Source: a virus. Taken from it: a DNA stretch of 64,000 nucleotides. The stretch spans positions 15,061 to 79,060 of the IMG/VR virus record IMGVR_UViG_3300042540_000949; one strand, given 5' to 3'. The notes beneath the pieces are model-generated. The model was not told where the DNA came from and ran no database searches. It saw nothing but the letters and a program-made list of their open reading frames with translations. Position 1 is the first letter of the stretch. Each line of letters starts with the position of its first letter. Below are positions 3,093 through 64,000 of the stretch, in pieces. A program made the translations under genes and the position numbers.

Positions 3093-3623
3093 TTATATTT
3101 CAGAATAACCCAACTTTTTTGCATTATTTAATATTATTGATGGGTCTATTTTTTTAACCAAAACTGCTGGATTACCTTTATACACTCCCCACTCTTCTGT
3201 TTCACCCCTAAGCAAACTTCCTGCGGTTAATAGTACACCCCTTCTTAAAATCGATCCGGGAAGAACTATTGCATTGGTGCTAACATTTGAAAACTCTTCC
3301 ATCGTGACAGGTTTATTTATTTGTGTTCCTTTATATTCATTTGGAATCATTGCCCCAAATAATCCGCTTCCATCAAATCTATCTGAAGCACAAATTATTC
3401 TGGCACCAGCCATAATATTATTAAATCCTTTAACTTCAAAATAAGAATTTTTACCACCTATAATAGTAACATACGGTCCAATATGAACATACGAACCAAT
3501 TTTAATATTGGGTGTGCAGTAAAATCCTTTATCTATTGCAATGTTTGATCCATTTATTGATAGAGAATTTTTTACAAAATTATCATTATCAATTAGTACA
3601 TTTGTACCTTTTATATCAATCAT
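3093..3623 (-). CDS. Hexapeptide-repeat (LbH) O-acetyltransferase
   Basis: IKIGSYVHIGPYVTI repeats; C-terminal GVYKGNPAVLVK. Confidence 0.85.
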   Translation of the reverse strand: MIDIKGTNVLIDNDNFVKNSLSINGSNIAIDKGFYCTPNIKIGSYVHIGPYVTIIGGKNSYFEVKGFNNIMAGARIICASDRFDGSGLFGAMIPNEYKGTQINKPVTMEEFSNVSTNAIVLPGSILRRGVLLTAGSLLRGETEEWGVYKGNPAVLVKKIDPSIILNNAKKLGYSEI

Positions 3624-4205: not shown

Positions 4206-5090
4206 TTATGCCTTAAACACTTTCTTTATATTTTCGTTCCACAATATTCCCCCACAAAATAATCCAGATATTTTTCCAAAAAGATAATCGCATTTTCCTA
4301 ACAATTTAGTTTGTATTATAGCTTCTTCACCCAATAAACGGCGATGATTTTCTCTTTTTGTGCTAATTTCTATCCAGCAATGTACTTTGTTATAGTACTC
4401 CGGTGTTTCATCAGTTTTTCTAAAGACATCGGGAATATAATAAGAATTTGGAAAAGTTTTTGACAAGGTTTCTATATAATCACTATCTTCGCTAACAAAA
4501 AATAATTTATTTATTTGAGGATTTTCATCTAGTATTGTTTGTATTTTTTTTACATAATCTTGAATAGTAAAAATTCCATATTCTGGATGAATAGCATCAA
4601 ATTCTGTTCCCCGTATCATCATACCTAGAGTAGTATAGCCTTTTAATTCTTTTTCATAGATTTCATTAACTTTATCTAAAATAAATTGTTTTGGTTTTAT
4701 ATACAATTTATCAACCGTTTGTTGTCTGATAAGTTGATCCGGCTGATCAAAATAATGTTTTGAATGATCTATTATTTCTGATCTCCTTGGAACAGTACAA
4801 TCTATGATAATATCGTCTGGCTGTGGAATATCTTGATCAAACCAATAATCAAATGGGTTACCGTTTGGAACCAATATGCTGGTTTGTCTAGTTTGTCCCG
4901 ATATATCACTCATGTTTGGTGTAAAACCTTCAACCCATGTAGTTCTACCCCAATCAATATATGGGATTCCTTCTCCTTTAGTTTCATGATGGTGGATAAG
5001 ATGCTCTAGACAAATTCTATAATTTGAAAAAAATCCATAACCGTAACCCCATCCATGGTAAATTGGCTGTATTCTATAATATTTTTTCAT
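4206..5090 (-). CDS. Putative fucosyltransferase (NodZ/O-FucT-like GT-B fold)
   Basis: GFFSN, LGMMIRGTE, FFVSED, LLGKCDYLFG motifs; gene context. Confidence 0.6.
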   Translation of the reverse strand: MKKYYRIQPIYHGWGYGYGFFSNYRICLEHLIHHHETKGEGIPYIDWGRTTWVEGFTPNMSDISGQTRQTSILVPNGNPFDYWFDQDIPQPDDIIIDCTVPRRSEIIDHSKHYFDQPDQLIRQQTVDKLYIKPKQFILDKVNEIYEKELKGYTTLGMMIRGTEFDAIHPEYGIFTIQDYVKKIQTILDENPQINKLFFVSEDSDYIETLSKTFPNSYYIPDVFRKTDETPEYYNKVHCWIEISTKRENHRRLLGEEAIIQTKLLGKCDYLFGKISGLFCGGILWNENIKKVFKA

Positions 5091-51676: not shown

Positions 51677-52198
51677 ATGTGCGACCAAGTAAAATATTGC
51701 AATAAATGCAAGAGAACACTTCCGTTGGCTACCTCTTTTCATAAAAGAAGTAATAGAAAGAATGGTTACAAGTCAATTTGCAAGGAGTGTCAAAAAAAAT
51801 ATCCTAGATCAAAACAATGTGCCATTAACAAAAGAAATTATCAGAAAAAAAGATATCACGAAGATCAACAGTACAATATATCCAAAAAATTTAGAAGAAA
51901 GGTAAGAAAAATTTTAAAACTATTTTTGGAAGGAAAATTAAAATCAACAAAAGATCAACACCGTGATTATCTGGGATGCTCAATAAGTTACTACAAAGAT
52001 TATATTGAGTCAAAATTTCAAGAGGGAATGACTTGGGAAAATTATGGTGTTCATGGTTGGCACCTAGATCACATCATTCCATGTACAGCATTTGACCTGA
52101 CAGATCCCGAACAGATCAAAAAATGCTTTCACTACACCAATACACAGCCACTGTGGGCAAAAGACAATATAAACAAATCAAATACCATTCCGGTCTAA
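51677..52198 (+). CDS. Free-standing HNH (endonuclease VII-like) nuclease
   Basis: N-terminal CxxC...CxxC; GMTWENYG, WHLDHIIP, HYTNTQPLW..DN..K. Confidence 0.88.
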   Translation: MCDQVKYCNKCKRTLPLATSFHKRSNRKNGYKSICKECQKKYPRSKQCAINKRNYQKKRYHEDQQYNISKKFRRKVRKILKLFLEGKLKSTKDQHRDYLGCSISYYKDYIESKFQEGMTWENYGVHGWHLDHIIPCTAFDLTDPEQIKKCFHYTNTQPLWAKDNINKSNTIPV

Positions 52199-52261
52199 TC
52201 CCGTTTTTATTCTAAGAACGCCGTATAAGCGATCCTAGCACGATAGAAAGGGTTTTAAATA

Positions 52262-52366
52262 TCAACCCTTGACCAGATTGACGACCAAAATTACGACGCA
52301 GAGGCCGAGAGTGATCCAAGGGAGTGTGAGGTACTTGTTCTTAAAATTTTGAAATTTTTGTAGCAT
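52262..52366 (-). CDS. 34-aa single-TM membrane peptide
   Basis: Manual ORF MLQKFQNFKNKYLTLPWITLGLCVVILVVNLVKG; TAAATA at 52388-52383 and AAGGA SD. Confidence 0.5.
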   Translation of the reverse strand: MLQKFQNFKNKYLTLPWITLGLCVVILVVNLVKG

Positions 52367-52406
52367 AAAGTTTCCTTTTTAGTATTTAGGGATAGGGATG
52401 TGGGAA

Positions 52407-52541
52407 GGGACCCAAAAAGGGACTCGTAAAGAGCCTCACATGGGACCCAATTTTCTGGGACTCCAGAAGGGACTCCAAAGAAGGGACCCAAAAAGGGACC
52501 CAGAATATTCAAAAATATTTGAGAATATTTGAGAATTTTGA
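52407..52541 (+). repeat. Seven GGGAC(C/T)C direct repeats followed by four AT-rich 10-mers
   Basis: GGGAC at 52407, 52419, 52442, 52457, 52469, 52483, 52495; GAATATTCAA/AAATATTTGA/GAATATTTGA/GAATTTTGA at 52503-52541. Confidence 0.85.
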
Positions 52542-52700
52542 GGGGTGTGTGGCTAGCCCGACGATTCTTTAAGATTTCTAGGGGGGCCCCATTTCACTGT
52601 TCTGGACCTTGACACATCGACTCCCCCCTCTCACCATACCACAAGCCCCCACCACTAGGGTGAGGGCTCGGGCTTCCGGGGGATCTGTCAAGTCAGCTCT

Positions 52701-52895
52701 TCACATCTCGCCCCATCCCGCACTGGCCAGCCAGTCGTTGTCCGCGTCCCAGTCCTCGCGGGTCATCTGACCGCAGGCGTCAGCGAACGCATCGTTGTCC
52801 GCGTCGCGTTCGATGTCCTCCATGTTTGAGCAGTTCGGGCAGGCACGGTCATCATCGAATCCGCAGTCGCAGTCACGGTTGGGGGTGTTGGTCAT
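52701..52895 (-). CDS. Small acidic Cys-containing early protein
   Basis: Promoter TTGACA(52930)-17-TATCAT-6-ATG; C-terminal DWLASAGWGEM. Confidence 0.7.
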   Translation of the reverse strand: MTNTPNRDCDCGFDDDRACPNCSNMEDIERDADNDAFADACGQMTREDWDADNDWLASAGWGEM

Positions 52896-53010
52896 GCCCG
52901 AATGATACCACACCCTGGCAGATGTGTCAACCTACATGGTCGAAAGATTTCAAGATTTCTGCCGGCCCCATTGGTTGACACATCCCCGACCATCGGATAC
53001 AATCCGTCCC

Positions 53011-53418
53011 ATGAAGATCCCCGCCCTGCTCATCCCGGCTGATATCACCCGCCCCATGACCACCGTGGAAATCGACACCGACTGCGGCAACCTCGCCTCG
53101 CTCATCGGCTGCGACCTCGTTACGGTTGTCCGTCCCTCCGCGTCCCTCCGCAACATGGTCGATGGCGACTGCACGGTGTGGGTCGATGACGAGGGGCTGC
53201 TGCGCGAGAACCCCCGTCAGAACATCCGGGCGTTCCTGATGACCGAGCAGCACCTCGTCGGCAATGCTCTCCTCACGGGCGTTGACAACGCAGCAGGCAC
53301 GATCACCCCGCTCCAGTTCGTGCTGCCTGCCTGCACCGTCCTGAACATCATCGAACAGAACGCGCAGGGGCTGCACCGCATCTATGCGGCCATCGACGCG
53401 GCCAACGCCAACGCTTGA
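53011..53418 (+). CDS. DUF3846-like early protein
   Basis: LIGC..V, WVDDEGLL, N..A, LVGNALL.G; promoter 52975-53003. Confidence 0.8.
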   Translation: MKIPALLIPADITRPMTTVEIDTDCGNLASLIGCDLVTVVRPSASLRNMVDGDCTVWVDDEGLLRENPRQNIRAFLMTEQHLVGNALLTGVDNAAGTITPLQFVLPACTVLNIIEQNAQGLHRIYAAIDAANANA

Positions 53419-53449
53419 CACATCCCCGCCCATCAGGTACAATCCTCCC

Positions 53450-53782
53450 ATGCACACCACCCGCTCCTCCATCGCCCTCCCCGTCGCCGCCAACACCGCC
53501 CGTCGCTACGACGAGGCCATGACCTACCTCGCCAACGGGTGGGTCGAGCTGACCTACCGCAAGGTGGGCGGCGAGGTGGTGACGCGCCTCGCCACGCGCA
53601 ACCCCACGCTCATCGACACCTTCGGTGATCGTTGGTCGCTTGAGGCGGTGCGGAAGTCCGACGATCCGTGGGGCGACAACATCGTCTACTGGGATCACGC
53701 AAAGGGCGGCATCCGCTCCTGCCGCGCCGACGAGGTCGTGGGCATGGCGATCCCCGGCGACTGCCCGGAGGTCAACCACTAA
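53450..53782 (+). CDS. WYL_2 (DUF2693)-like protein
   Basis: V.LTYRK..GE...R.ATRN, YWD..KGGIRSC; promoter 53415-53443. Confidence 0.75.
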   Translation: MHTTRSSIALPVAANTARRYDEAMTYLANGWVELTYRKVGGEVVTRLATRNPTLIDTFGDRWSLEAVRKSDDPWGDNIVYWDHAKGGIRSCRADEVVGMAIPGDCPEVNH

Positions 53783-53819
53783 GGTTGACACATCCCGCCT
53801 CTCACGGTACAATCCTCCC

Positions 53820-54035
53820 ATGACCATCACCCCCGCCGACAACCCCTGCAACTGCCGCGCCTGCGGTGCCCTCATCCTCAACGAAGTGTCCTCGTTGTGC
53901 GAGGACTGCGAGGCCGATATGAACGCCTACTACGATGAGCGCGAGGACGCAGAGCGCGACCGTCAGATGACCGAGGACAACTACATCCGCGAGAACTACG
54001 AAACCCCCATCGGTGAGCTGTACGGGGGAGACTGA
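53820..54035 (+). CDS. Small acidic CxxC...CxxC protein
   Basis: CRACG...CEDC; promoter 53785-53813. Confidence 0.7.
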   Translation: MTITPADNPCNCRACGALILNEVSSLCEDCEADMNAYYDEREDAERDRQMTEDNYIRENYETPIGELYGGD

Positions 54036-54040
54036 GCCAA

Positions 54041-54106
54041 GGGTGCATGGGATAGCCGAAAAGGATTCGTCCCTGCTCCGATTCGTTCGGAGCTAGGCTC
54101 CCACCC
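54041..54106 (+). ncRNA. Candidate structured RNA (three-way junction, TTCG loops)
   Basis: GGGTG..GGGA.AGCC / GGCTCCCACCC closing stem; GGA-TTCG-TCC; GCTCCGA-TTCGT-TCGGAGC. Confidence 0.35.
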
Positions 54107-54238
54107 AAGCCCAGGTCAACCAGGTCGAACCCCGGACAGGACGCAGAAACTTCAAACCGTTTGCTTGACACATCCCACCCGATACGGTACAATCACCGTA
54201 ACACCCAACCGCCCCATAGGGGCAAAGAGACTGAACCC

Positions 54239-54610
54239 ATGCCGACCGACTACACGCAGCCCGTCACCCTCGTCCGCCTCGCTCACCCCACGAACCCCTC
54301 CATCGTTGAGTTCGCGTACACGCCCCGCTACTCGCGGTGGACGATGCTGAAGTTCAACCCCGCGAAGGCGCAGACGGCATCGGACGCTTGGATCCGCTAC
54401 TGCGAGGACAACCTGTTCAAGCCCTCGCACTTCGATTCGATCAGCCACGGGGCGACCAACCTGTTCCACACCGACATCCTGAAGATCGTCGGCCACCTCA
54501 CCCTGAACGGGTGGCAGATCACGCAGAACCGCCCGTACAACGGGCCGAGCGGGTACTACGAGTGCAACGCTGCGGCAGCAGCGGAGAGCGAAGACCTCGT
54601 CCTGTTCTGA
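54239..54610 (+). CDS. Hypothetical early protein (leadered)
   Basis: Promoter 54165-54193; leader hairpin GCCCC-ATA-GGGGC; GC3-biased frame. Confidence 0.7.
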   Translation: MPTDYTQPVTLVRLAHPTNPSIVEFAYTPRYSRWTMLKFNPAKAQTASDAWIRYCEDNLFKPSHFDSISHGATNLFHTDILKIVGHLTLNGWQITQNRPYNGPSGYYECNAAAAAESEDLVLF

Positions 54611-54702
54611 TCCACGGTCTAGGAACGGAGGGGGGCCGGGGCGTTCCCGGTTCCCCTCTCCCTTCCCTTGACACATCACCCCGAACCTGATACCATCCAC
54701 CC

Positions 54703-54915
54703 ATGAAGAACGAAACCCTCTGCATCATCTCTGCCGTGTCCCTCTTGGCCCTCGCAGCCGTGATTGAGTATGCCCCTGCTTTCAGCGGGATTGAGCGGTG
54801 GATGAACCGCAACCCCGTTTGGATGCTTGGCATCCTCGCAGTCTGCTTGATCCCGTTTGGAATCGGCCTCTACCGTCAGGTCATCACCCCCATCCTCGTC
54901 AACCGGAAGGGTTGA
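54703..54915 (+). CDS. Small two-TM membrane protein
   Basis: Promoter 54668-54696; two hydrophobic segments. Confidence 0.7.
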   Translation: MKNETLCIISAVSLLALAAVIEYAPAFSGIERWMNRNPVWMLGILAVCLIPFGIGLYRQVITPILVNRKG

Positions 54916-54946
54916 CTCATCACCCCCAACCAGGTACAATCCCACC

Positions 54947-55147
54947 ATGCCCTCTCTCTCCACCAGAAACCTCGTCAGCCACTACCTCGTCATCGGCACG
55001 GACAACGAAGGAAACTTCCGCCGTCTGAAGGTGTTCACCCGAGCTGATGCCGAGGTCATCGGCAGCACCTACATGATCCGCGCCCGTGTGTGGGCCGTCA
55101 ACCCCCACGGCAAGAAGCGTCTAGAGCGTCGATACGTTTCGTATTGA
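54947..55147 (+). CDS. Small basic early protein
   Basis: Promoter 54912-54940, ATG 6 nt later. Confidence 0.7.
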   Translation: MPSLSTRNLVSHYLVIGTDNEGNFRRLKVFTRADAEVIGSTYMIRARVWAVNPHGKKRLERRYVSY

Positions 55148-55178
55148 CACATCACCCCGAACCTGATACCATACACCC

Positions 55179-55436
55179 ATGAGCAATCCCAACACCAACC
55201 CCGCATTGGATCGCATCCGTTCCTACACCATCATCCACGCCACCGCCCTGCGCGAGTGGGTGAACGACAGCCCGACCGACTCCCGCAGCGCCGAGCTGAT
55301 GGAGATCGTCCGAGACTGCGAGAGGAACTACCTGATCCTCGCCCTGTTCCGGACGATGGAGCCGACGCTCGCAGACTTCAACGATGCGTTCGACGCATTC
55401 TGCGCCGCAGCGGATCAGGCGATCACGAACAACTAG
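55179..55436 (+). CDS. Hypothetical early protein
   Basis: Promoter 55144-55172 (29 nt identical to 54668-54696). Confidence 0.72.
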   Translation: MSNPNTNPALDRIRSYTIIHATALREWVNDSPTDSRSAELMEIVRDCERNYLILALFRTMEPTLADFNDAFDAFCAAADQAITNN

Positions 55437-55522
55437 GGTGGTTGGGACGGGGGAGACTCCCAGGGTGCGGAGTCTCCCCCAACACCCTTGACACAACCTC
55501 CAACACAGGATACAATACTCAC

Positions 55523-55786
55523 ATGACAACCACCGCAATCAAGACCGCCCGTGAACTTCGCGCCTCCCTCTCCACGGGGGCCGTCTGCCTCGTCGCCTTC
55601 CGCAAGATCAGCGGCGAGATCACCGAGCGCTACATCACCCGCAATCAGGACTACATCCCCGAGGATGCGCGTCCGCAGTATGTGAAGGCCGAGAACCCCC
55701 ACTACATCACCGCATGGGATGTGGAGGGAAAGCATTGGATTTCCTTCCACGAATCGAACGCCCTCGCGTGGGAAGAGCATCAGTAA
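55523..55786 (+). CDS. WYL_2 (DUF2693)-like protein
   Basis: VAFRKISGE..ER..TRN...IP, AWDVEGKHWISF; promoter 55488-55516. Confidence 0.78.
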   Translation: MTTTAIKTARELRASLSTGAVCLVAFRKISGEITERYITRNQDYIPEDARPQYVKAENPHYITAWDVEGKHWISFHESNALAWEEHQ

Positions 55787-55824
55787 GCCTTGACACATCC
55801 GCACCCCAACGGTACAATACACCC

Positions 55825-56097
55825 ATGACCACCCGAACCACCAAGCAGGATCTTGAACTCCGCGTCGAAAACCTCCGCAAGATGACGGGTAGGAAGTTCT
55901 ACCTGACGGGAGCCTACGGAGGCTGGCAGTTGGCCGAGGAGGTCGATGGCGGAAGCCACGGCATCACCCCCGGATTCGTGAGCAAGCGCCAACTGGAAGA
56001 TCGCCTGAACTCCATCCTCACCGGGCTGCTCATCGGGGAGCGGATGGAGAAGGAGCGCAAGCGCCGCGAGGACGAGCACCCCTATGCGTACAACTGA
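55825..56097 (+). CDS. Hypothetical early protein
   Basis: GAYGGWQL, GFVSKRQL; promoter 55790-55818. Confidence 0.72.
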   Translation: MTTRTTKQDLELRVENLRKMTGRKFYLTGAYGGWQLAEEVDGGSHGITPGFVSKRQLEDRLNSILTGLLIGERMEKERKRREDEHPYAYN

Positions 56098-56266
56098 ATC
56101 GCCCCAGGCGAACATCCGCCTTGCGATCACCTTGTGCCGAGACATCCGGCACATCCTCGCATCCCGAAACTTCCCTTCCAAGAATCTTCAGGAGCGAGTC
56201 CGCAAGGCAATCGAACGGGTGTCGCAGACGGAAGAAGAAATCGAAAACCTTGAAGTCGGTGCTTGA
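56084..56266 (+). CDS. Hypothetical 60-aa protein
   Basis: Overlaps previous stop; its TGA lies in the next -35 box. Confidence 0.6.
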   Translation: MRTTESPQANIRLAITLCRDIRHILASRNFPSKNLQERVRKAIERVSQTEEEIENLEVGA

Positions 56267-56297
56267 CCCAACCCCCCGGACAAGATACAATCAACCC

Positions 56298-56522
56298 ATG
56301 CTATTCGACAAACTCAATCAGTCAGGGATTCACCGTGGCGTGTTCGCCGTCCTGCTTGGCATCATGTGGCTCATGCCCGTAGTGCTTGGATGGATCGCCT
56401 ACGAAGCTGCTCACCACCACATGAAGATCCTGCTTGGGTTCTGTGCGGTGGGATGCCTGCTTGAACTCTACGCGATCACCTTCCTGCTTGGGGGCCTGAA
56501 GTTCATTCGCTCACGGGCTTGA
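56298..56522 (+). CDS. Small two-TM membrane protein
   Basis: Promoter 56263-56291; hydrophobic segments. Confidence 0.7.
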   Translation: MLFDKLNQSGIHRGVFAVLLGIMWLMPVVLGWIAYEAAHHHMKILLGFCAVGCLLELYAITFLLGGLKFIRSRA

Positions 56523-56553
56523 CACATCCGGAAAGAAAGAATATAATCCGGAC

Positions 56554-56691
56554 ATGAACCACAGGCCGGCAAAGTTCGTACACGACGCCTTCCGCGAAGG
56601 GCAGCGGCTCCGCTCCAAGACTTGGGGAAAGAAGAGCCGCTGCCCTCGGAAGGACAGGCGCGAGGCACGGAAGGAGCTGCAGCGGGCCTGA
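56554..56691 (+). CDS. 45-aa basic peptide
   Basis: Manual ORF MNHRPAKFVHDAFREGQRLRSKTWGKKSRCPRKDRREARKELQRA behind TTGACA-17-TATAAT (56519-56547). Confidence 0.65.
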   Translation: MNHRPAKFVHDAFREGQRLRSKTWGKKSRCPRKDRREARKELQRA

Positions 56692-56835
56692 ACTACTATC
56701 AGGCGGCTCAGAACACTAGGATGGTACAAAGACCTTGGATGGTGCGGGGCCTGATAGTAGCTCCCCGCGACCTGGACGGCACTCAGCCGGTCATCGGACG
56801 GCACACAAAAACTTCAAAAACTTTGCCCATGTCAC
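56692..56835. repeat. Inverted-repeat module, copy 1
   Basis: CTACTATCAGGC 56693-56704 / GCCTGATAGTAG 56749-56760; ATCGGAC 56793. Confidence 0.8.
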
Positions 56836-56870
56836 TTGACGTATCCAGCTCTACCCCTTATACTACGCAC

Positions 56871-57083
56871 ATGGATCACACCCCCTACGACGATGCGACC
56901 GAGGAAATCACCCGAGAGGAGGCCATCCGTGAACTCATGGATGAAGGCTACTCGCGTGACGAGGCTACCCGCATGATCGGGGACTACGAGGCTGATGAGT
57001 ACGAGCCCAAGTACCTGTCGGACTTCCCCGATGAGTGGTCTGATGACATTGCCCTGTTCGTTGACCCGGAGGACTTCGAATGA
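56871..57083 (+). CDS. Highly acidic 70-aa protein (DNA-mimic candidate)
   Basis: 26 D/E versus 5 K/R; promoter 56836-56864. Confidence 0.72.
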   Translation: MDHTPYDDATEEITREEAIRELMDEGYSRDEATRMIGDYEADEYEPKYLSDFPDEWSDDIALFVDPEDFE

Positions 57084-57382
57084 TCTGCATTCGCATGAAG
57101 TACCTGCACACTCCAATCGCCAACCAAAGCTGGAAGCGCAGGCGTGAGCGGGAGATTCTTCGCATCGTGACGGGAGCCGTGGCATATGCGTTCGTGGCCC
57201 GTGACTTTCCCCGAACGGAGGCCCAGTTCGACTGCAAGCAAGGATTCGCCCTCACTTCCATCCGGGTGTTCGTGGACGGGATTGACGAGGAGATGGCCAA
57301 GCGTGTCGTGAACTACCTGAACAACAACAGGAATGTCTACGCAAACTACTTGACGCAACCCGAACTATGTGATACCATGTGA
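57080..57382 (+). CDS. Hypothetical protein
   Basis: ATGA coupling to the previous gene. Confidence 0.6.
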   Translation: MICIRMKYLHTPIANQSWKRRREREILRIVTGAVAYAFVARDFPRTEAQFDCKQGFALTSIRVFVDGIDEEMAKRVVNYLNNNRNVYANYLTQPELCDTM

Positions 57383-57384
57383 CC

Positions 57385-57615
57385 ATGCACCGACCCAAGA
57401 ACCCAACCACGACCAATGTGAGCGACCTCATCAATGCGATGTGGAAGTTCACGGACGAGAACCCGATGTGGTACGAGAACCGCGATCAGTTGTCGCGGGT
57501 GTCCGCAGCGTGGAGCATCCTCACCAAGATGTGCGAACCGCTTGACTTGACGGAGGAAGAGTACGCCTTCGTCACCGGAATCTTTGAGACTTGCAAGGAG
57601 AACGAACTGCCATGA
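57385..57615 (+). CDS. Hypothetical early protein
   Basis: Promoter 57350-57378, ATG 6 nt later. Confidence 0.68.
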   Translation: MHRPKNPTTTNVSDLINAMWKFTDENPMWYENRDQLSRVSAAWSILTKMCEPLDLTEEEYAFVTGIFETCKENELP

Positions 57616-57965
57616 ACCCGCAAAACGACTTCGACAACTTCTTCACGGACGAGAACCACCCCGCCATGAACTTGGCCAAGCCGACCCCGGAAGCGGTGTT
57701 GGAAGCCCTGATCCGGGTGGTGGGCCTGCGTCCCTTGTGGTACCGGGATCCGACCCTGCGCCTGATGGTCGTGAAGGGGCTGGACTTTCTGACGCAGGAA
57801 CTTCACGCTGCCCTTGAGCGTGGCGAGAAGCCCACCGTCGATCTGATCGGTGCAGCCTTCTGCATGGTGCTTGCGGAGAGGATCGAATCGTCCAAGCGAT
57901 TCGCCTCCCCGGAAGAGGAAAAGTGGTCGCCCAAGATGGACAATCACCCGCAGGACAACGAGTGA
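57612..57965 (+). CDS. Hypothetical protein
   Basis: ATGA coupling; GC3-biased frame. Confidence 0.65.
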   Translation: MNPQNDFDNFFTDENHPAMNLAKPTPEAVLEALIRVVGLRPLWYRDPTLRLMVVKGLDFLTQELHAALERGEKPTVDLIGAAFCMVLAERIESSKRFASPEEEKWSPKMDNHPQDNE

Positions 57966-58006
57966 CTTGACAGCACCGTGTCCCCCCGGTTATAATAGGG
58001 GGATGA

Positions 58007-58079
58007 GCCTCTGTGGCGCAGCTGGTAGCGCAGTAGACTTTTAATCTATTGGTCGTGGGTTCGAACCCCACCGGAGGCA
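58007..58079 (+). tRNA. tRNA-Lys(UUU)
   Basis: Acceptor GCCTCTG/CGGAGGC, anticodon loop CTTTTAA, GGTTCGAACC; no encoded CCA. Confidence 0.93.
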
Positions 58080-58081
58080 TT

Positions 58082-58609
58082 ATGAACGACGAGATCGAAC
58101 AACTCAAGAAGAAGATCGCCTACCTTGAGGAACAAGTAGACCGATGGGAAGATGATGTCCTGCGTCTGATGAAGGAACGCAACGAAGCACGGAAAGAGGT
58201 TTGCCTTTGGCAAGGACTTGATACAGGAAAAAAGTCCGAAGAAGTTGCTAATGTTCGTGGTTGGGATTGTTTCAACCAACCCAAAACAGAACAGGACAAG
58301 GCAATGGATCGCCTCGCAGAACTTGATGAGGAACTTGGTCTGAACCCCATTCCGGAATCTCACTACATCAAGACCCTTCAGGCATATGATCGCCTCGCCA
58401 TCGTCATGGAGGCCATCATGGAACATTGGTTGGAAGGCAATGCCAACCCACCGAAGGAACTCATCGATGCCTATTACGATGTCAAGGAGGACATCAACGA
58501 CCATCTGAACGTGGATCGTCTGCATGAGCAGGTGATCCCGGCGAACTCTGAATTTTACGACAAAATTCAGAAAAAGTTTTCTGTTGACGACACCCCGAAT
58601 CTGTGGTAG
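58082..58609 (+). CDS. Hypothetical coiled-coil protein
   Basis: ATG 2 nt after the tRNA-Lys discriminator; ERNEARKEVC..RGWDCF; stop TAG forms the next -10. Confidence 0.7.
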   Translation: MNDEIEQLKKKIAYLEEQVDRWEDDVLRLMKERNEARKEVCLWQGLDTGKKSEEVANVRGWDCFNQPKTEQDKAMDRLAELDEELGLNPIPESHYIKTLQAYDRLAIVMEAIMEHWLEGNANPPKELIDAYYDVKEDINDHLNVDRLHEQVIPANSEFYDKIQKKFSVDDTPNLW

Positions 58610-58619
58610 AATGTGTTAC

Positions 58620-58704
58620 GGGATTGTGGCGGAATCGGCATACGCAGCAGACTCAAAATCTGCCGACCCTTAAAGTCTTGTGGGTTCAAGTCCCACCAAT
58701 CCCA
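58620..58704 (+). tRNA. tRNA-Leu(CAA)
   Basis: Acceptor GGGATTG/CAATCCC, loop CTCAAAA, long variable arm, GGTTCAAGTCC. Confidence 0.93.
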
Positions 58705-58707
58705 TTT

Positions 58708-58781
58708 GTTCTCGTAGCTCAGTTGGATAGAGCAGCCGCCTTCTAAGCGGCAGGTCGTTGGTTCGAATCCAACCGGGAACG
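58708..58781 (+). tRNA. tRNA-Arg(UCU)
   Basis: Acceptor GTTCTCG/CGGGAAC, loop CTTCTAA, GGTTCGAATCC. Confidence 0.94.
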
Positions 58782-58817
58782 CTTGACAGACCCCGAAAGA
58801 CAGGATACAATACACCC

Positions 58818-58991
58818 ATGAGCAAGACCAAGACCAAGAACCAAACGATCTCTGAAAAGTTGACTCGCATCGATGATTATGTCTGCGACATCTGGAACGA
58901 TGTCGATGAAGGCAGGCTATCCCCGAATCAGATCGGGGATCGACTTGACAAGGTCATCAGGATGCTTGGCGAACTTCAGGATTCCCTGTGA
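58818..58991 (+). CDS. Hypothetical 57-aa protein
   Basis: Promoter 58783-58811, ATG 6 nt later. Confidence 0.68.
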   Translation: MSKTKTKNQTISEKLTRIDDYVCDIWNDVDEGRLSPNQIGDRLDKVIRMLGELQDSL

Positions 58992-59098
58992 GGACACACA
59001 TGAATATTATATAAGGAGTGTTTGGTGGAAACATCAAAAACCGCACAGAGGCATTCTGCGAATGCACGGTTGACCGCTAGCCGTACAACTAGCGATTC

Positions 59099-59174
59099 GG
59101 GAAGGTGGCTGAAAAGTAGTTAGAGCGCGTGCCTTATAAGCGCGAATATGTGGGTGCAACTCCCGCCCTTCCCA
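59099..59174 (+). tRNA. tRNA-Ile(UAU) with atypical T-loop
   Basis: Acceptor GGGAAGG/CCTTCCC+A, stem CGTGC/GCGCG, loop CTTATAA, T-loop TGCAACT. Confidence 0.78.
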
Positions 59175-59210
59175 TTTGACACAACCCCAAACAGAGAGTA
59201 GAATATAACC

Positions 59211-59510
59211 ATGCCAATCGCACTACCAAAAGAAGAATATCTCGCCCCGCAGATCTTCTCATCGTTCATGATCGAAAACAACGATCTCATCGTCCGCGTC
59301 GAAGAGCCCTTCGGCATCATTGAGATGGATCTGTCGTTTGCTGTCCGTCTGGATCCCAAGACTGGCTTGGCGTCCACGGACTCAGATGACATTCTCTTTT
59401 CCATTGCCGATGACTCGGAAGGCAATGAGCATGAGGTAGACCCGGATTGGGTTATGGGTTGGATCATCCGCACCCTGAACCCATACCTCCGCGAGAAGTT
59501 CTCCGTCTGA
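59211..59510 (+). CDS. Acidic hypothetical protein
   Basis: Promoter 59176-59204, ATG 6 nt later. Confidence 0.72.
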   Translation: MPIALPKEEYLAPQIFSSFMIENNDLIVRVEEPFGIIEMDLSFAVRLDPKTGLASTDSDDILFSIADDSEGNEHEVDPDWVMGWIIRTLNPYLREKFSV

Positions 59511-59548
59511 CACTTGACACAACCCCGAACAAGAGGTACAATACACAC

Positions 59549-59833
59549 ATGGAAATGACCTTCGACACATCTTACTTCGGTTGGATTCTCGCAGTCTCTT
59601 TCGGTCTGTACATGGTGTATCGCCACATCATGAACAGGATGCATGAACTTCAGCGTTCCCTCCACGACGATATGCGTGGGAACATGGAGTACGGCAAGGA
59701 GGAAATGGAGTTCATCCGCAATCGCATCGACGGCATTGAGCGCAGGATCTCCACCCTTGAGGTGGCTCCCAAGCCGCAGAGCAAGGACAAGGCTCCCTAC
59801 AACTCAACCGCCTACTACAACACGGAAGCCTGA
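59549..59833 (+). CDS. Protein with N-terminal TM segment and coiled coil
   Basis: Promoter 59514-59542; YFGWILAVSFGLYMVY. Confidence 0.72.
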   Translation: MEMTFDTSYFGWILAVSFGLYMVYRHIMNRMHELQRSLHDDMRGNMEYGKEEMEFIRNRIDGIERRISTLEVAPKPQSKDKAPYNSTAYYNTEA

Positions 59834-59859
59834 CCCGCTACCAGGCTTCCTCTCATAAC

Positions 59860-59896
59860 CAGGGACTCCCACGCTTCGGGGAGTCCCTGTTCTTTT
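59860..59896 (+). terminator. Intrinsic terminator
   Basis: CAGGGACTCCC...GGGAGTCCCTG-TTCTTTT. Confidence 0.85.
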
Positions 59897-59906
59897 ATAT
59901 TCTTTT

Positions 59907-60060
59907 ACTACTATCAGCCAGCCTTAAGGCTGGCTGATCTTTCGCATGGACGGCAAGGACAATAATAATATTCTGAGTTGATTGATAGTAGCTCTGGGAC
60001 TTGGGACCTGGTGCCGGTTATCGGACGCAAAACAATCTTCAAAAATATCGAAGAAGTTTG
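59907..60060. repeat. Inverted-repeat module, copy 2
   Basis: ACTACTATCA 59907 / TGATAGTAG 59983-59991; 26-bp perfect palindrome 59913-59938; ATCGGAC 60020. Confidence 0.8.
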
Positions 60061-60095
60061 TTGCAGCATCCCCGGAAATGTCGTACCATATGCGT

Positions 60096-61370
60096 ATGAG
60101 CAACATCGACAACCGTAAGGCAAACTTCCTCGCAGCCCTGAAGCAGATCGCAGGCGAAGCGACCAGCGTGGCCGATGCCATCTTCAGCCGTGACGATTGC
60201 ATCACCGCCTGCCGTGACTCCGCTGCGCCTGCCTACACCGTCCTTCCTGCTTGGCTCGTCCAAGACCCGTCCCGCCGCGCAGGTCGCGGCCTATACAGAA
60301 TCCCGGAAATGGTTTCCGTGGAAATCGAAACGGACGGGATGGAAGATTCGTCCGAAAGTTCCTTGACCGATCCCCAAACTTGTGATACCATTACGAACAT
60401 GAGCAGCAGCAACTACAACCTCGTCGCATCCATGCCCGATGTCTCCCTCGTCCCGATGAAGAACGACACTTTCGTTCCGTGGGGCCACTACGATGACATC
60501 AGCACCATCCTCGCGTCCAAGCAGTTCGCGCCCGTCTACATCACGGGTCTGTCGGGCAACGGCAAGACCACGATGATCGAACAGATCTGCGCCAACACCG
60601 GGCGTGAGTGCATCCGCGTCAACATCACTGCCGAAACCGACGAGGACGATCTCATCGGCGGCTTCCGACTCATCAACGGCGAAACCAAGTTCGTCTACGG
60701 TGGCGTGGTTCAGGCCATGCAGCGCGGTGCCGTCCTGCTGTTGGACGAGATCGACTTGGGGACGGAGCGGATGATGTGCCTTCAGCCCGTGCTTGAGGGC
60801 AAGGGAATCTTCATCAAGAAGATCGGCGTTTTCGTCAAGCCCGCGCAGGGGTTCAATGTGGTCGCCACGGCCAACACGAAGGGCAAGGGCGAGTCTGATC
60901 GGTTCGTCGGCACCCGCTGCTTGAACGAGGCGTTCGTGGATCGGTTCTCCTATTGGTTTGAGCAGGAGTACGCGGATCGCAACATCGAAGCGCGCATCAT
61001 CATCCGCAAGATGAAGGCGTATGGCAAGGAGGACAAGGAGTTCGCGCAGTACCTCGTCAAGTGGGCGGAAACGATCCGCTTGGGCTTCAAGGAGGGCGGC
61101 TTGGATGACATCATCACGACCCGCCGCTTGGAGGAGGTCTGCAAGGCGTTCGCCATCTTCAACGACAAGCAGAAGGCGATCAAGTTGACGCTCACGCGAT
61201 TCGACGGTGCTACGCAGGAGGCGTTCTTCACCCTCTACACCAAGATCGACCCGACGATCCTCCCGACCCCGGAGGGGATGGACAAGAACAACCTCGGCCC
61301 GTCCGAAGCCTATCGTGCAGAGCAGGCGAATCAGAATCCGCCTGACACCAACTACGCCCTCAACGCCTAA
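60096..61370 (+). CDS. MoxR/CobS-like AAA+ ATPase with an N-terminal accessory domain
   Basis: GLSGNGKT, RVNIT.ETDEDDLIGG, LLLDEID, ATANTKG.G, NEAFVDRF, TRRL; promoter 60061-60089. Confidence 0.92.
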   Translation: MSNIDNRKANFLAALKQIAGEATSVADAIFSRDDCITACRDSAAPAYTVLPAWLVQDPSRRAGRGLYRIPEMVSVEIETDGMEDSSESSLTDPQTCDTITNMSSSNYNLVASMPDVSLVPMKNDTFVPWGHYDDISTILASKQFAPVYITGLSGNGKTTMIEQICANTGRECIRVNITAETDEDDLIGGFRLINGETKFVYGGVVQAMQRGAVLLLDEIDLGTERMMCLQPVLEGKGIFIKKIGVFVKPAQGFNVVATANTKGKGESDRFVGTRCLNEAFVDRFSYWFEQEYADRNIEARIIIRKMKAYGKEDKEFAQYLVKWAETIRLGFKEGGLDDIITTRRLEEVCKAFAIFNDKQKAIKLTLTRFDGATQEAFFTLYTKIDPTILPTPEGMDKNNLGPSEAYRAEQANQNPPDTNYALNA

Positions 61371-61388
61371 AGAAAGGAGGAACCAACA

Positions 61389-61616
61389 ATGCCGTACATG
61401 AACAAGCGCAATCGTTTCATCGCTGCTGCCAAGCAGTACGCAGAGGCAAACCTGAACGGAGACTTCAGCAACTTCAAGAAGTCCGATCTCATGGTTGTGG
61501 CACAGTCCATCAACATGAAGGGAATCCCGACTTGGGTTGTCAAGGAGTACGCGAGTGCCGTGAGCCGTGGGATCTACGATCTCTCGTCGCTCATCAACAA
61601 CACCGCAACCGTCTGA
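61389..61616 (+). CDS. Stand-alone paralog of the AAA+ N-terminal domain
   Basis: NKRNRFIAAAKQ...IPTWVV...SRGIYDL versus NRKANFLAALKQ...LPAWLV...GRGLYRI; AAGGAGG SD. Confidence 0.75.
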   Translation: MPYMNKRNRFIAAAKQYAEANLNGDFSNFKKSDLMVVAQSINMKGIPTWVVKEYASAVSRGIYDLSSLINNTATV

Positions 61617-61677
61617 GCTGTTGCCATGAGGGGAGGGGCGGACTAAACATCCCCCCTCCCCATTCGCAGGAATAAAA

Positions 61678-61765
61678 TCCGTTGGAGCTAAACTACACCC
61701 TCTGGGTGACGGCTAGCCTAATGCTCCCGAAATGCTTGGTGTTCTGCAGCACCAGGTTGAACGGA
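61678..61765 (+). ncRNA. Candidate multi-stem structured RNA
   Basis: TCCGTT/AACGGA enclosing GGAGC/GCTCC, CACCC-TCT-GGGTG and TGGTG/CACCA. Confidence 0.35.
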
Positions 61766-61783
61766 AAGGAACGGAGCCTTTCC

Positions 61784-61809
61784 CCCCGGATTCTTATCCG
61801 GGGTTTTTT
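61784..61809 (+). terminator. Intrinsic terminator
   Basis: CCCCGGA-TTCTTA-TCCGGGG-TTTTTT. Confidence 0.85.
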
Positions 61810-61812
61810 ATT

Positions 61813-61965
61813 ACTACTATCAGCGGGTCTCTAAGGACCCGCTGATTCTCGCAGGACACGAAATAATTTTAAGGACGCTCCCTGATAGTAGCTCGTACCT
61901 GCGCCTGGAGTTGCCGGCCAGCTTATCGGACTCACAAAAAAACTTGTAAACTTCGACTATGTGGG
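61813..61965. repeat. Inverted-repeat module, copy 3
   Basis: ACTACTATCAG 61813 / CTGATAGTAG 61882-61891; inner stem 61819-61846; ATCGGAC 61925. Confidence 0.8.
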
Positions 61966-62000
61966 TTGCAGCTTCCCCCGATATGTGCTACCATATGCGT

Positions 62001-64000
62001 ATGAACACCTCTCTCTCCATCTTTGCCCGTGCCCTCGCAAGCGAGAACCTGACCTTCGCGTTCGACCCGAAAGCGGAGACTGCTTCGTTCGATGTCAAGG
62101 CGCGGCACCTCGTCATGCCCATGTGGGATGTCTCCGACACCCTCCGCACCATGCTCGTCGCGCATGAGATCAGCCACGCGCTGTGGACTCCCTACGAGGT
62201 GTCCAACCGTCTGTTTGAGGCGGCGACCGCAGAGGGATACAACGAGAAGTTGCTGCACCACATCTGCAACATGATTGAGGATGTCCGCATCGAAAAGTTG
62301 ATGAAGGTGAAGTACCCCGGTACGCGCCGCGACTTCTTCTTGGGCTACCGCGAGATCATCGACAAGAATCTTTTCAACCTTTCCGGGTTGGATTGGAACA
62401 AGGTGGACATGATCTCCCGTCTGAACGGCCACTTCAAGTGGGGCGTTCCGGGCTTCCTCACCATCCCGCTGACCGACGAGGAGCGGGACATTGCCGAATT
62501 GGTGGACGGGGTTGAAACCTTTGAGCAGGCGTTTGAACTTGCCAAGTTCCTCTACGGCCACCCGTCGATGGAGAAGGCGCGTCAGCGGTTTGAGGCGGAA
62601 GCGCAGGACATTGGGAACGGCAAGGGCAAGGGCAAGGGCGACGAGGAGGGTGAGACTCAAGAGGGTGACGGTGGCACCGACCTGACCAACATGGGCGGCG
62701 CGTTTGCCCGGAAGAACGGCGAGACTGTCACCATCGACAACATCACGATCAGCCCCCTCGCTGACTTCGGCAAAGCGATCATCAGCGCGGACAAGATCCG
62801 CGAGAACTACGGGCGCATCTACAACCACATGAACCGCAACATCGACCTTGACGGCTACCGCAAGTATGTCAAGGAGTCCGATGCGTTCGTCCGTCAGTTG
62901 GTCGCGCAGTTTGAGCGCCGCAAGGCAGCGGACGAGATCCGCCGTGAGCGCCCCAAGCAGACGGGGATGCTCAACCTTGACCGCCTGCACCAGTACCGCA
63001 CCCACGATGACATCTTCCTCTCCAAGATCATCAAGCAGGACGGGAAGAACCACGGCATCATGTTCCTCATCGACTTCTCCGGGTCGATGGGATCAACCAT
63101 CGGCAATTGCATCCATCAGGTGTTGCAGTTGGTGTGGTTCTGCGAGAAGGCCAAGATCCCGTTTGAGGTCTACGGCTTCACGAACCTCGGGCATTGGGGC
63201 TTTGAGGCGCAGATGGAAGCGGAGCGCAAGGCGTACATGGACGCGAACCCGGATGACACTTGGGGCAACGGCTTCCGCAGCCCGACCGTGAACCTCGTCG
63301 CCATGAACCCCAAGCCCAACAGCATCCACTACGGGGATGCGCGGCTCATCAACCTCGCATCGTCGCGTGACTCCGCTGCGGATCGGGAGCGCCTGTTGGC
63401 CTGCTTGTGGGAGCAGTATTGCGCGGGTACTGGTGTCTGCTGCATTCCCTTCGGTGGCACTCCGACCGTGGAATCCGTTGCCATCGTCAGTCAGGTGATG
63501 AAGAAGTGGGTGGAGGCGAACGACATTCAGATCCCGACCCTGATGGTCGTTACCGATGGTCAGCCCGGTGGGATCTACACGGAAGATCGTTCCTGCTGCC
63601 ATGCGTTCATCAACAGCAACCACGGGCTCTGCGTCACCAACGAAATCTTCGGGACGGTTCACTACTCCGATGGTTCCGCCAACGAGATCGACATTCCCAA
63701 CGCCATCATCGGCACCATGCTTGACTCCCTGCGGACGGGATTGAACGCCCGCTGCGTCGGAATGTATGTGGATCACTCCCGCAAACTTTCGGAGCATATG
63801 TTCCGTTCCATGTGCGTCACCCGCAAGGAGTACCGGGAGCAGATGAACAGCCGCCAGTACGCATACGATTCGATTGACGAAAGCCCCCGCTACGAGGCGT
63901 GTTCGGAGCAGTACGAAAGCGGTGCGCTGATCCTGCCCAAGTCCACCTACCCCGGATACGATGCGTACTTCCTCATCCGCAGCATGAAGGCGGTGAGCGA
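62001..64000 (+). CDS. CobT-like metallopeptidase/VWA-domain protein (partial, runs off window end)
   Basis: Manual translation MNTSLSIFARALASENL...HEISHALWTP...N.IEDVRIE...IDFSGSM (MIDAS)...GGTP...TDG; promoter 61966-61994; missing from ORF track. Confidence 0.9.
   Translation, partial: MNTSLSIFARALASENLTFAFDPKAETASFDVKARHLVMPMWDVSDTLRTMLVAHEISHALWTPYEVSNRLFEAATAEGYNEKLLHHICNMIEDVRIEKLMKVKYPGTRRDFFLGYREIIDKNLFNLSGLDWNKVDMISRLNGHFKWGVPGFLTIPLTDEERDIAELVDGVETFEQAFELAKFLYGHPSMEKARQRFEAEAQDIGNGKGKGKGDEEGETQEGDGGTDLTNMGGAFARKNGETVTIDNITISPLADFGKAIISADKIRENYGRIYNHMNRNIDLDGYRKYVKESDAFVRQLVAQFERRKAADEIRRERPKQTGMLNLDRLHQYRTHDDIFLSKIIKQDGKNHGIMFLIDFSGSMGSTIGNCIHQVLQLVWFCEKAKIPFEVYGFTNLGHWGFEAQMEAERKAYMDANPDDTWGNGFRSPTVNLVAMNPKPNSIHYGDARLINLASSRDSAADRERLLACLWEQYCAGTGVCCIPFGGTPTVESVAIVSQVMKKWVEANDIQIPTLMVVTDGQPGGIYTEDRSCCHAFINSNHGLCVTNEIFGTVHYSDGSANEIDIPNAIIGTMLDSLRTGLNARCVGMYVDHSRKLSEHMFRSMCVTRKEYREQMNSRQYAYDSIDESPRYEACSEQYESGALILPKSTYPGYDAYFLIRSMKAVS

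Follow-up and report, generated by a model that had tools for sequence, protein, structure and literature searches.

Predicted leaderless expression cassettes in the GC-rich early block of an uncultured T4-like lake phage

The GC-rich block and its viral context

The stretch of DNA analyzed here, referred to as the window, comprises 64,000 nucleotides (bases 15,061–79,060) of the linear 79-kb IMG/VR virus record IMGVR_UViG_3300042540_000949. The DNA belongs to an uncultured T4-like lake phage whose body is AT-rich, and the part of the window from 52.6 to 64 kb constitutes its GC-rich early block. Between window positions 52,902 and 61,994 this block carries an array of 22 sigma70-type promoters, which is the subject of this study. 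The GC content of the phage body is 25–45%, rises near position 52,550 from ~0.38 to ~0.63 inside 300 bp, and remains at 50–65% from there up to the end of the record. We regard the phage as T4-like because its portal protein is 48% identical to the portals of T4-like cyanomyoviruses. The block contains four tRNA genes (Lys-UUU, Leu-CAA, Arg-UCU and Ile-UAU), which were the only matches in an Rfam search of the block, and it encodes a CobS-like ATPase with at most 57% identity to marine and cyanophage copies. A megablast search of the GC-rich block against a phage reference collection found no near-identical phage.

The abrupt GC jump could be taken to mean that the block is foreign DNA mis-assembled onto the phage, in which case the array would stem from another replicon; we consider this hardly conceivable. 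The GC switch is bridged by a 664-nt contig that comes from a separate lake study and covers positions 52,092–52,755. A search with the CobS-like protein retrieved 21 related IMG/VR loci, and those with 71–87% identity showed an AT-rich flank, a GC-rich block of 10–12 kb and a second AT-rich flank on single contigs. The block of such relatives holds the identical set of four tRNAs together with CobS and CobT, and the order AT-rich flank, GC-rich block with tRNAs, CobS and CobT, AT-rich flank recurs in different samples, on at least 12 related IMG/VR contigs. An assembly chimera was ruled out based on the bridging contig and on these relatives, which carry flank and block together.

Promoters abutting start codons

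Scanning the 64-kb window with the strict pattern TTGM-N19-TANNNT-N6-ATG gave 17 matches, all of them inside 52,893–62,003, compared with a chance expectation of 0.50 (sd 0.67); this number was reached in 0 of 100 dinucleotide shuffles. Two further promoters showed a 7-nt gap (promoter 52975 with ATG 53011, and promoter 60363 with ATG 60399). The remaining three of the 22 promoters have no abutting ATG, namely 54165, which is followed by a leader of ~40 nt, and 57967 and 58584, which belong to tRNA units. An original prediction, made by a model from the letters of this DNA, had listed 22 promoters and 19 ATGs, 17 of them at 6 nt and two at 7 nt from the −10 box, and its coordinates, counts and spacings were reproduced by the scan. 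The single 18-bp spacer that it had mentioned was found in promoter 57967 (P57967), the only such promoter. A generic promoter scan detected 26 promoter-like sites versus 5.1 ± 1.9 in shuffled sequences, and no TTGAC-type promoter coupled to an ATG was present elsewhere in the 79-kb record.

The promoters are close to consensus (TTGACA, 17 bp, TAnnAT), often with a TGn extension, and adjacent copies resemble each other beyond the hexamers, with CATC or CAAC followed by a C-rich spacer (Table 1). All listed ATGs open reading frames (ORFs), which range from 45 to more than 666 codons and have a GC content at third codon positions (GC3) of 0.66–0.92. In line with the predicted lack of a Shine-Dalgarno (SD) site, 16 of the 19 cassettes carry no SD-like word at −18 to −4.

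Table 1 Promoter cassettes, tRNA units, terminators and associated genes of the GC-rich block. Promoters are given as −35 box, spacer length in bp and −10 box where noted; coordinates are window positions.
Feature	Coordinates	Strand	Product or remark
Promoter TTGACA-17-TATCAT, 6-nt gap, ATG 52895	52893..52930	−	Found by the strict scan
ORF from ATG 52895 down to 52701		−	64 aa, Cys-rich
Promoter TTGACA-17-TACAAT, 7-nt gap, ATG 53011	52975..53013	+	ORF to 53418, 135 aa, DUF3846
Promoter and ATG 53450	53415..53452	+	ORF to 53782, 110 aa, WYL_2-like
Promoter and ATG 53820	53785..53822	+	ORF to 54035, 71 aa, Cys-rich
Promoter TTGACA-17-TACAAT, ~40-nt leader, ATG 54239	54165..54241	+	ORF to 54610
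Promoter (TGn-TACCAT) and ATG 54703	54668..54705	+	ORF to 54915, 70 aa, hydrophobic
Promoter TTGACT-17-TACAAT and ATG 54947	54912..54949	+	ORF to 55147; preceding TGA inside −35 box
Promoter and ATG 55179	55144..55181	+	ORF to 55436; preceding TGA inside −35 box
Perfect 12-bp hairpin 55449–55480, promoter, ATG 55523	55449..55525	+	ORF to 55786, 87 aa, WYL_2
Promoter and ATG 55825	55790..55827	+	ORF to 56097; 4/5 orthologues promoter-abutted
Promoter TTGACC-17-TACAAT and ATG 56298	56263..56300	+	ORF to 56522, membrane-like; upstream stop inside −35
Perfect consensus promoter TTGACA-17-TATAAT and ATG 56554	56519..56556	+	ORF to 56691, 45 aa, basic
Promoter and ATG 56871	56836..56873	+	ORF to 57083; A-tract upstream of −35
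Promoter and ATG 57385	57350..57387	+	ORF to 57615
Promoter TTGACA-18-TATAAT, tRNA-Lys(UUU) 58007–58079	57967..58079	+	Predicted +1 4 nt before tRNA
Promoter TTGACG-17-TAGAAT, tRNA-Leu(CAA) 58620–58704, tRNA-Arg(UCU) 58708–58782	58584..58782	+	
Promoter and ATG 58818	58783..58820	+	ORF to 58991
Promoter TTGACA-17-TAGAAT and ATG 59211	59176..59213	+	ORF to 59510, 99 aa
Promoter and ATG 59549	59514..59551	+	ORF to 59833, 94 aa, N-terminal membrane helix
Intrinsic terminator, 11-bp stem then T run	59860..59889	+	Closes unit
Promoter TTGCAG-17-TACCAT and ATG 60096	60061..60098	+	CobS/MoxR-like AAA+ ATPase gene to 61370, 424 aa
In-frame promoter inside ATPase gene, TTGACC-17-TACCAT, 7-nt gap, ATG 60399	60363..60401	+	
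SD-led gene (AAAGGAGG, then ATG 61389), no own promoter	61373..61616	+	
Intrinsic terminator after ORF 61389–61616	61784..61803	+	
Promoter TTGCAG-17-TACCAT and ATG 62001	61966..62003	+	CobT-like VWA gene, runs past window end

Conservation of the promoter–ATG spacing and of the start codons

The distance between TANNNT and an ATG opening at least 45 codons was recorded in the GC-rich DNA of 14 relatives (126 kb). An analysis of related genomes had been proposed with the original prediction, and it revealed a sharp peak of 117 sites at 6 nt, accompanied by 18 sites at 7 nt and only ~6 at most other offsets; the highest other value was 20 at 1 nt. One relative on a 68-kb contig contained 18 exact matches to the promoter–ATG pattern versus 0 for the reversed control. 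No such offset peak was found in the cultured T4-like cyanophages Syn9 (50 kb) and ACG-2014f (41 kb). When viral contigs were scanned with the exact spacer start of the window, mostly unrelated single matches were obtained, with L009 as the sole relative.

In an orthologue test, the window proteins were located in the relatives by tblastn alone, and the distance from the −10 box to the ATG of the homologous residue 1 was then read. A −10 box was situated 6–7 nt before this ATG in 14/14 close CobS orthologues, 14/14 close CobT orthologues and 10/11 members of the 57385 family, with hexamers, discriminators and even the type of −35 box varying among these orthologues. The promoter stood at 6 nt in four of five orthologues of the 53011 gene, all three orthologues of the 53450 gene were promoter-abutted, and orthologues of the gene starting at ATG 52895 occupied the block edge in six relatives. 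The 54165 unit is the sole protein cassette with a leader, and its orthologue in L038 is promoter-abutted at 6 nt. As negative controls, the SD-led genes 57612 and 61389 were never promoter-abutted in the relatives (0/11 and 0/15, respectively); the latter gene serves as an internal control for canonical initiation.

The −35 region differed by sub-lineage (L038, L039, L041 and L044 compared with the window), with TTGACA and 17 bp, CTGAC, TTGAC and 18 bp, or ‘aattcTACACAcactcc’ together with a TGn-extended −10, and no −35 match was found in the sub-lineage with the TGn-extended −10. These differences may reflect different hosts or sigma specificities. The −10 box, its distance to the ATG and the C at −1 were constant across the sub-lineages despite the changing spacer and −35.

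An in-frame stop codon 6–33 nt upstream of the coupled ATG, without any other start in between, was present in 8/14 CobS orthologues (stop 6–15 nt upstream), 7/16 CobT orthologues (stop 12–33 nt upstream; the 16 comprise the 14 close orthologues and the more distant loci L046 and L047) and 8/9 orthologues of the 57385 family, and this stop often lay within the −10 box itself. In the window, the coupled ATG is likewise the only possible start of the genes 54703 and 55179, both with an in-frame stop 15 nt upstream, as well as of 56554 and 59211. Therefore, the longer starts given in the program-made ORF list are wrong, and the correction of these starts that had been called for is borne out in both the window and the orthologues. 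The upstream-stop test was used instead of tblastn with the longer starts, which is confounded by the conserved promoter being translated into 11–13 residues of pseudo-similarity.

A position matrix of 163 sites in relatives showed C at −1 in 87%, A at +1, G at −14 in 77% and T at −15 in 50% of the sites, and the latter two would fit an extended −10. Polymerases with sigma70-family factors start ~7 nt past the −10 box, on a purine that follows a pyrimidine, and the C at −1 and A at +1 agree with this rule. Start codons at the coupled position were ATG in 178 cases, GTG in 10 and TTG in 17, with 10 cases of CTG as the non-start control; backgrounds were similar, and only ATG was enriched. This pattern would be expected of leaderless translation, which is known to depend on a 5′-terminal AUG. 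The first 36 nt of the coupled ORFs folded at a mean of −1.5 kcal/mol, whereas inner windows of these ORFs reached −7.45 kcal/mol (p = 8e-71), a difference which was present in every GC class. These 36 nt are also poor in G (16% vs 30%) and rich in C and A, and 53% of residues 2–5 are Thr, Asn or Ser. At tRNA-Lys and tRNA-Leu, the distance from the end of the promoter to the mature 5′ end is 7–9 nt in 18/22 cases; therefore, the phage abuts promoters to the functional 5′ end of RNA genes too.

The distant relative L047 (IMGVR_UViG_3300042691_014316), whose CobS is 53% identical, has no GC-rich block (33–44% GC) and still carries five TTGACA-17-TAnnnT promoters whose −10 is followed by an ATG at 6 nt. 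The predicted leaderless cassettes and the GC-rich composition are therefore separable traits. In another relative, G001, a further full promoter lies ~75 nt upstream at five cassettes (TACAAT TGCCTCGGTGGAATAATTTATTT...; L028:1475–1560, 2369–2455, 3142–3227, 4215–4298 and 4850–4934). These sites could represent either tandem promoters or a conserved short 5′ RNA, and the AT-rich stretch at these sites doubles as an upstream element of the putative leaderless promoter.

Cassette turnover

The right half of the array is syntenic across relatives (56871, 57385, 57612, tRNAs, 58082, CobS, 61389 and CobT). Cassettes of the left half are reordered or missing, and their order and content differ among 10 relatives. 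None of the 21 loci contains a homologue of 54703, 54947 or 59211. In two other lake studies (runs X3 and X7), contigs join position 59197 to 59536, which leads from P59176 to P59514 and drops exactly one cassette (99 aa) between two promoters. This joint may represent a natural cassette deletion at promoters, although its flanks of only 27 nt make it only a hint. Pfam matches were obtained for 3/20 products of small genes (59549 and 61389 left out) and for 4/61 family representatives from the relatives, and nearly all cassette proteins remain unnamed after searches of Pfam and PHROGs.

Second genes, terminators and late-type promoters

Four of the five block genes that lack their own promoter (57080, 57612, 58082 and 61389) are preceded by GGAGG-class sites. 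The starts of 57080 and 57612 also overlap the preceding stop as ATGA. The presence of GGAGG on these second genes indicates that the host evidently reads SD sites. The units with a second, SD-led gene are 56871 with 57080, 57385 with 57612, 60096 with 61389, and tRNA-Lys with 58082. At the first of these, the SD-led ORF 57080–57382 follows the 56871 ORF and contains P57350 in its 3′ end, so that its TGA (57380) falls into the discriminator of that promoter; the SD-led ORF 57612–57965 then follows the 57385 ORF. The ORF 56084–56266, which overlaps the end of the 55825 ORF, has neither its own promoter nor a clear SD site.

Clear intrinsic terminators on the + strand number only two (Table 1), because of which the transcripts are probably nested instead of one per gene, and the downstream AUGs on such read-through RNAs have no SD site. 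The original prediction had envisaged leaderless modules, each a self-contained unit of one promoter and one gene. Its core, an SD-independent start with the A of the ATG as +1, held in every computational test, but self-containment did not, given the scarcity of + strand terminators and the existence of several two-gene units.

In the AT-rich body of the phage, sigma70-type promoters (with 16-bp spacers) have leaders of mostly 13–45 nt, with guaC (7 nt) and an HNH gene (8 nt) as exceptions. Late-type TAAATA boxes, by contrast, showed in the clade (relatives L033–L045) a sharp peak 5 nt before ORF-opening ATGs (33/254, background ~2). The putative leaderless design therefore extends beyond the early genes, contrary to the initial notion of a purely immediate-early programme, and part of the late genes may be leaderless too. 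Five TAAATA-5 nt-ATG sites occur in this genome, at 14598(−), 29865(−), 34378(+), 49830(−) and 49853(+). The sites 49830(−) and 49853(+) form a divergent pair which uses one common palindromic TAAATA box.

Proposed mechanism and alternative explanations

We assign a probability of about 0.8 to the interpretation that these promoters place the A of the ATG at +1, yielding leaderless, SD-independent messages with the predicted 5′ ends. This interpretation is well supported by the sequence and comparative evidence and is, at the RNA level, a prediction. The host RNA polymerase with a sigma70-family factor would recognize the 22 near-consensus promoters, presumably early in infection. With the −10 box ending 6 (or 7) nt before the ATG and a pyrimidine, usually C, at −1, transcription would begin on the A of the ATG, and the messages would have neither a 5′ leader nor an SD site. 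They could then enter the leaderless route, in which the ribosome and the initiator tRNA bind a 5′-terminal AUG, and the CA-rich, G-poor and unfolded first 30–40 nt may aid ribosome binding. The second genes of the units would be translated via ordinary GGAGG sites and ATGA overlaps, and the two tRNA units would be served by promoters that abut them in a like manner. At five junctions the gap between genes is exactly 31 nt and the preceding TGA constitutes bases 2–4 of the next TTGACA, a packing that arises because promoter and translation start would form one 35-bp piece. Exchange between promoters may add, remove and rearrange cassettes, as it does with the promoter-early stem-loop (PeSL) cassettes of T4-type phages. 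The earlier idea that the many promoters might also titrate RNA polymerase is pure conjecture.

Several points weigh against this interpretation. Transcript 5′ ends, ribosome use and protein N-termini are sequence-based predictions, and the start rule of 7 nt derives from studied RNA polymerases and may not be that of this host. Escherichia coli translates leaderless messages weakly, and the ribosomes of the host of this phage may do so as well. With two terminators on the + strand, every ORF also lies inside longer read-through RNAs, on which some SD-independent initiation may take place. In the cassettes 55523, 58818 and 59549, the promoter spacer contains a weak AGGA or GAGGT word that might be used on such RNAs.

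These points lead to an alternative in which the promoters are real and longer read-through transcripts are the main source of the proteins, with initiation at internal SD-less AUGs, for instance through S1-bound unfolded CA-rich regions, 70S scanning or re-initiation after the stop 31 nt upstream; the fixed promoter–ATG distance would then be a by-product of tight packing. We judge this to be unlikely. Read-through itself is likely with so few intrinsic terminators, five junctions do have the fixed stop-to-start gap, and unfolded, A-rich start regions favour SD-independent initiation on leadered RNAs as well. However, packing leaves the 6-nt gap at the 117 sites in relatives unexplained, whatever lies upstream of them. 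The genes 60096, 62001 and 56871, which come after terminators or long spacers, have the same gap, which for 60096 and 62001 is kept in 14/14 close orthologues each. Read-through explains neither the predominance of C at −1 nor the absence of GTG and TTG enrichment, and the use of GGAGG by second genes of the same units indicates that the host reads an SD site when one is offered. It is even less probable that the 35-bp unit is mainly a PeSL-like site for recombination or shuffling at the DNA level, its likeness to a promoter being secondary. The variable cassette order among relatives, the cassettes unique to this phage, the contig joint through which a single cassette between two promoters is missing from two lake samples, and the similarity of neighbouring copies beyond the hexamers would all suit such an element. 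Yet the spacer and the type of −35 box vary while the −10 box, the ATG distance and the C at −1 are fixed, which therefore speaks for selection on promoter function and not on sequence identity, and the same unit drives tRNA genes too. Moreover, promoter function and recombination coexist in PeSLs (PMC2839356), so that recombination is more an added role than a true rival to leaderless initiation.

A far-reaching extension of the leaderless interpretation, which we consider doubtful, is that the lake T4-like clade expresses most of its transcript-heading genes without leaders. The AUG would directly follow the early sigma70-type promoters and some of the late gp55-type TAAATA promoters, and it would lead into a 5′ end selected to be CA-rich and unfolded. 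This would be part of a takeover that weakens SD- and 30S-dependent initiation of the host (e.g., via S1, the 3′ end of the 16S rRNA, or the IF2/IF3 balance) and privileges the phage's own messages, and the 35-bp unit would make the cassettes portable between hosts.

Organization of individual units

The promoter of the 52895(−) gene points away from P52975, and the left edge of the GC-rich block is marked by it. The Pfam match to DUF3846 in the 53011 product starts at residue 6. Bases 2–4 of the −35 box of P53415 are the TGA stop of the preceding gene, and the stop of the gene upstream of 56554 lies inside the −35 box of P56519. The first 29 nt of P55144 are identical to P54668. Among the tRNA units, the −10 box of P58584 ends 7 nt ahead of tRNA-Leu, P58783 begins on the base directly after tRNA-Arg, and tRNA-Ile(UAU) is located at 59099–59174, downstream of the ORF driven by P58783. 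The GGAGG (58073–58077) that serves as SD site for ORF 58082–58609 is situated inside the 3′ acceptor strand of tRNA-Lys. In an extreme overlap of signals, the TAG of the P58584 −10 hexamer (58607) is also the stop of this ORF.

The promoter inside the CobS-like gene (60363–60401) is conserved in 14/14 relatives, in each case in frame and with the −10 box 7 nt before the ATG. The short form of the ATPase predicted from it would have 323 aa and lack ~100 N-terminal residues. A-tracts are found upstream of the −35 box at those promoters which open a unit after a spacer (52975/52930, 54165, 56836, 58584, 60061 and 61966). A module consisting of inverted boxes, ACTACTATCAG ... CTGATAGTAGCT, which flank a variable palindrome, occurs in three copies at window positions 56692–56765, 59897–59995 and 61806–61905. 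Each copy is followed by GGACCTGG..CCGG..ATCGGAC and an A-tract, and the copies lie upstream of the unit-leading promoters 56836, 60061 and 61966.

Host of the phage

The phage tRNAs read A/U-ending codons, and the GC3 of the early block is ~0.8. This combination of tRNA codon choice and GC3 points to a high-GC host. Neither psbA nor a WhiB gene was found in five records (G000 and G002–G005; 595 kb, 44–76% complete), of which G002–G005 contain the loci L033, L036, L037 and L045. The missing psbA argues against a cyanobacterial host. The host is probably a high-GC heterotroph and not a cyanobacterium, despite the portal matches to cyanomyoviruses. A search of genome contigs for CobS gave no match, and a look-up of the DUF3846 protein in the Atlas yielded only a weak lead to Actinomycetota. 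A guaC search found a 79%-identical copy on the 6.4-kb contig L053 (CAINVS010000202.1) of an ‘uncultured Bacteroidetes’ metagenome-assembled genome, which is most likely a mis-binned phage contig.

Significance and comparison with known systems

T4 is the textbook model of phage early gene expression. The lineage described here is T4-type and widespread in lakes, and it appears to fuse promoter and translation start into one 35-bp unit. Searches of open-access papers on T4-type phages and cyanophages found no description of this promoter–ATG layout, although absence there is no proof. If confirmed, the layout would mean that an entire viral early programme can run on leaderless initiation in phages other than those of Thermus, and it would provide ~180 natural, evolution-tested 5′ ends for learning what makes leaderless messages efficient. 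It would also mean that gene callers misplace many start codons of such phages. In addition, the layout constrains the host, which should have a high GC content, read SD sites and be competent for leaderless translation, and the units could offer very compact expression parts for synthetic biology.

The closest parallel within the T4-type phages are the PeSL cassettes of RB49/phi1, T4/PST and KVP40/nt-1 (Arbiol et al. 2010, PMC2839356; Comeau et al. 2014, PMC4122927). A PeSL consists of a sigma70 promoter, an AT-rich tract and a stem-loop, and ends in an SD site and a start codon (PMC2839356). About 50 PeSLs occur per genome, before ORFans in hyperplastic regions, where they mediate shuffling (PMC2839356; PMC4122927). 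As in these phages, many near-consensus sigma70 early promoters precede small genes of unknown function in a variable region of a T4-type phage, some promoters are preceded by an AT-rich tract ahead of the −35 box, and genes may be gained, lost and reordered at the repeats. In contrast to PeSLs, which have an SD site, the array shows no leader, with the ATG at the predicted +1 and without an SD-like word in the 16 of 19 cassettes mentioned above, and it lies in a GC-rich block of an AT-rich genome. Furthermore, inverted repeats of at least 8 bp are found next to or within the promoter at only ~3 of the 22 sites, namely 55449–80, 57983–58002 (a palindrome over the −10 box of P57967) and 58547–71, and the 55523 unit is the most PeSL-like of all. 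Further hairpins or palindromes (59860–89, 59913–38 and 61784–803) are located 120–190 nt upstream of P60061 and P61966. On these grounds, the array can be rated as a set of PeSL-like cassettes that lost the leader.

A comparable placement of transcription starts has been shown experimentally for the Thermus phages phiYS40 and Lalka27a, in which most transcripts start on the initiator codon (bioRxiv 10.64898/2026.04.20.719267). Like the phage studied here, these are lytic phages which rely on the host RNA polymerase, with promoters placed so that transcripts begin on the initiator codon. Their 5′ ends were mapped, whereas those of the lake phage are predicted; they are unrelated to T4 and their host phylum is known for leaderless genes; and they use AUG or GUG (A or G), whereas only AUG is used here. 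The leaderless transcripts of YS40 are reportedly mainly middle and late and stem from promoters with only a −10 box.

In bacteria, leaderless genes carry a TANNNT signal ~10 nt before the start codon and account for ~19% of the genes in Actinobacteria and ~39% in Deinococcus-Thermus (Zheng et al. 2011, PMC3160421). The array shares with them the −10 box of the TAnnnT form directly upstream of the start, the lack of an SD site and the high-GC context. The bacterial-type leaderless features found here are the TANNNT 6–7 nt before the start, the absence of an SD site or room for one, and the AUG start. Those bacterial genes are scattered cellular genes, whereas the lake phage has a dense viral array with full −35 boxes. 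The classical leaderless phage message is the lambda cI mRNA transcribed from PRM. It resembles the messages predicted here in its 5′-terminal AUG, its lack of an SD site and its binding by 70S ribosomes, but it represents a single regulatory gene and not a genome-wide layout.

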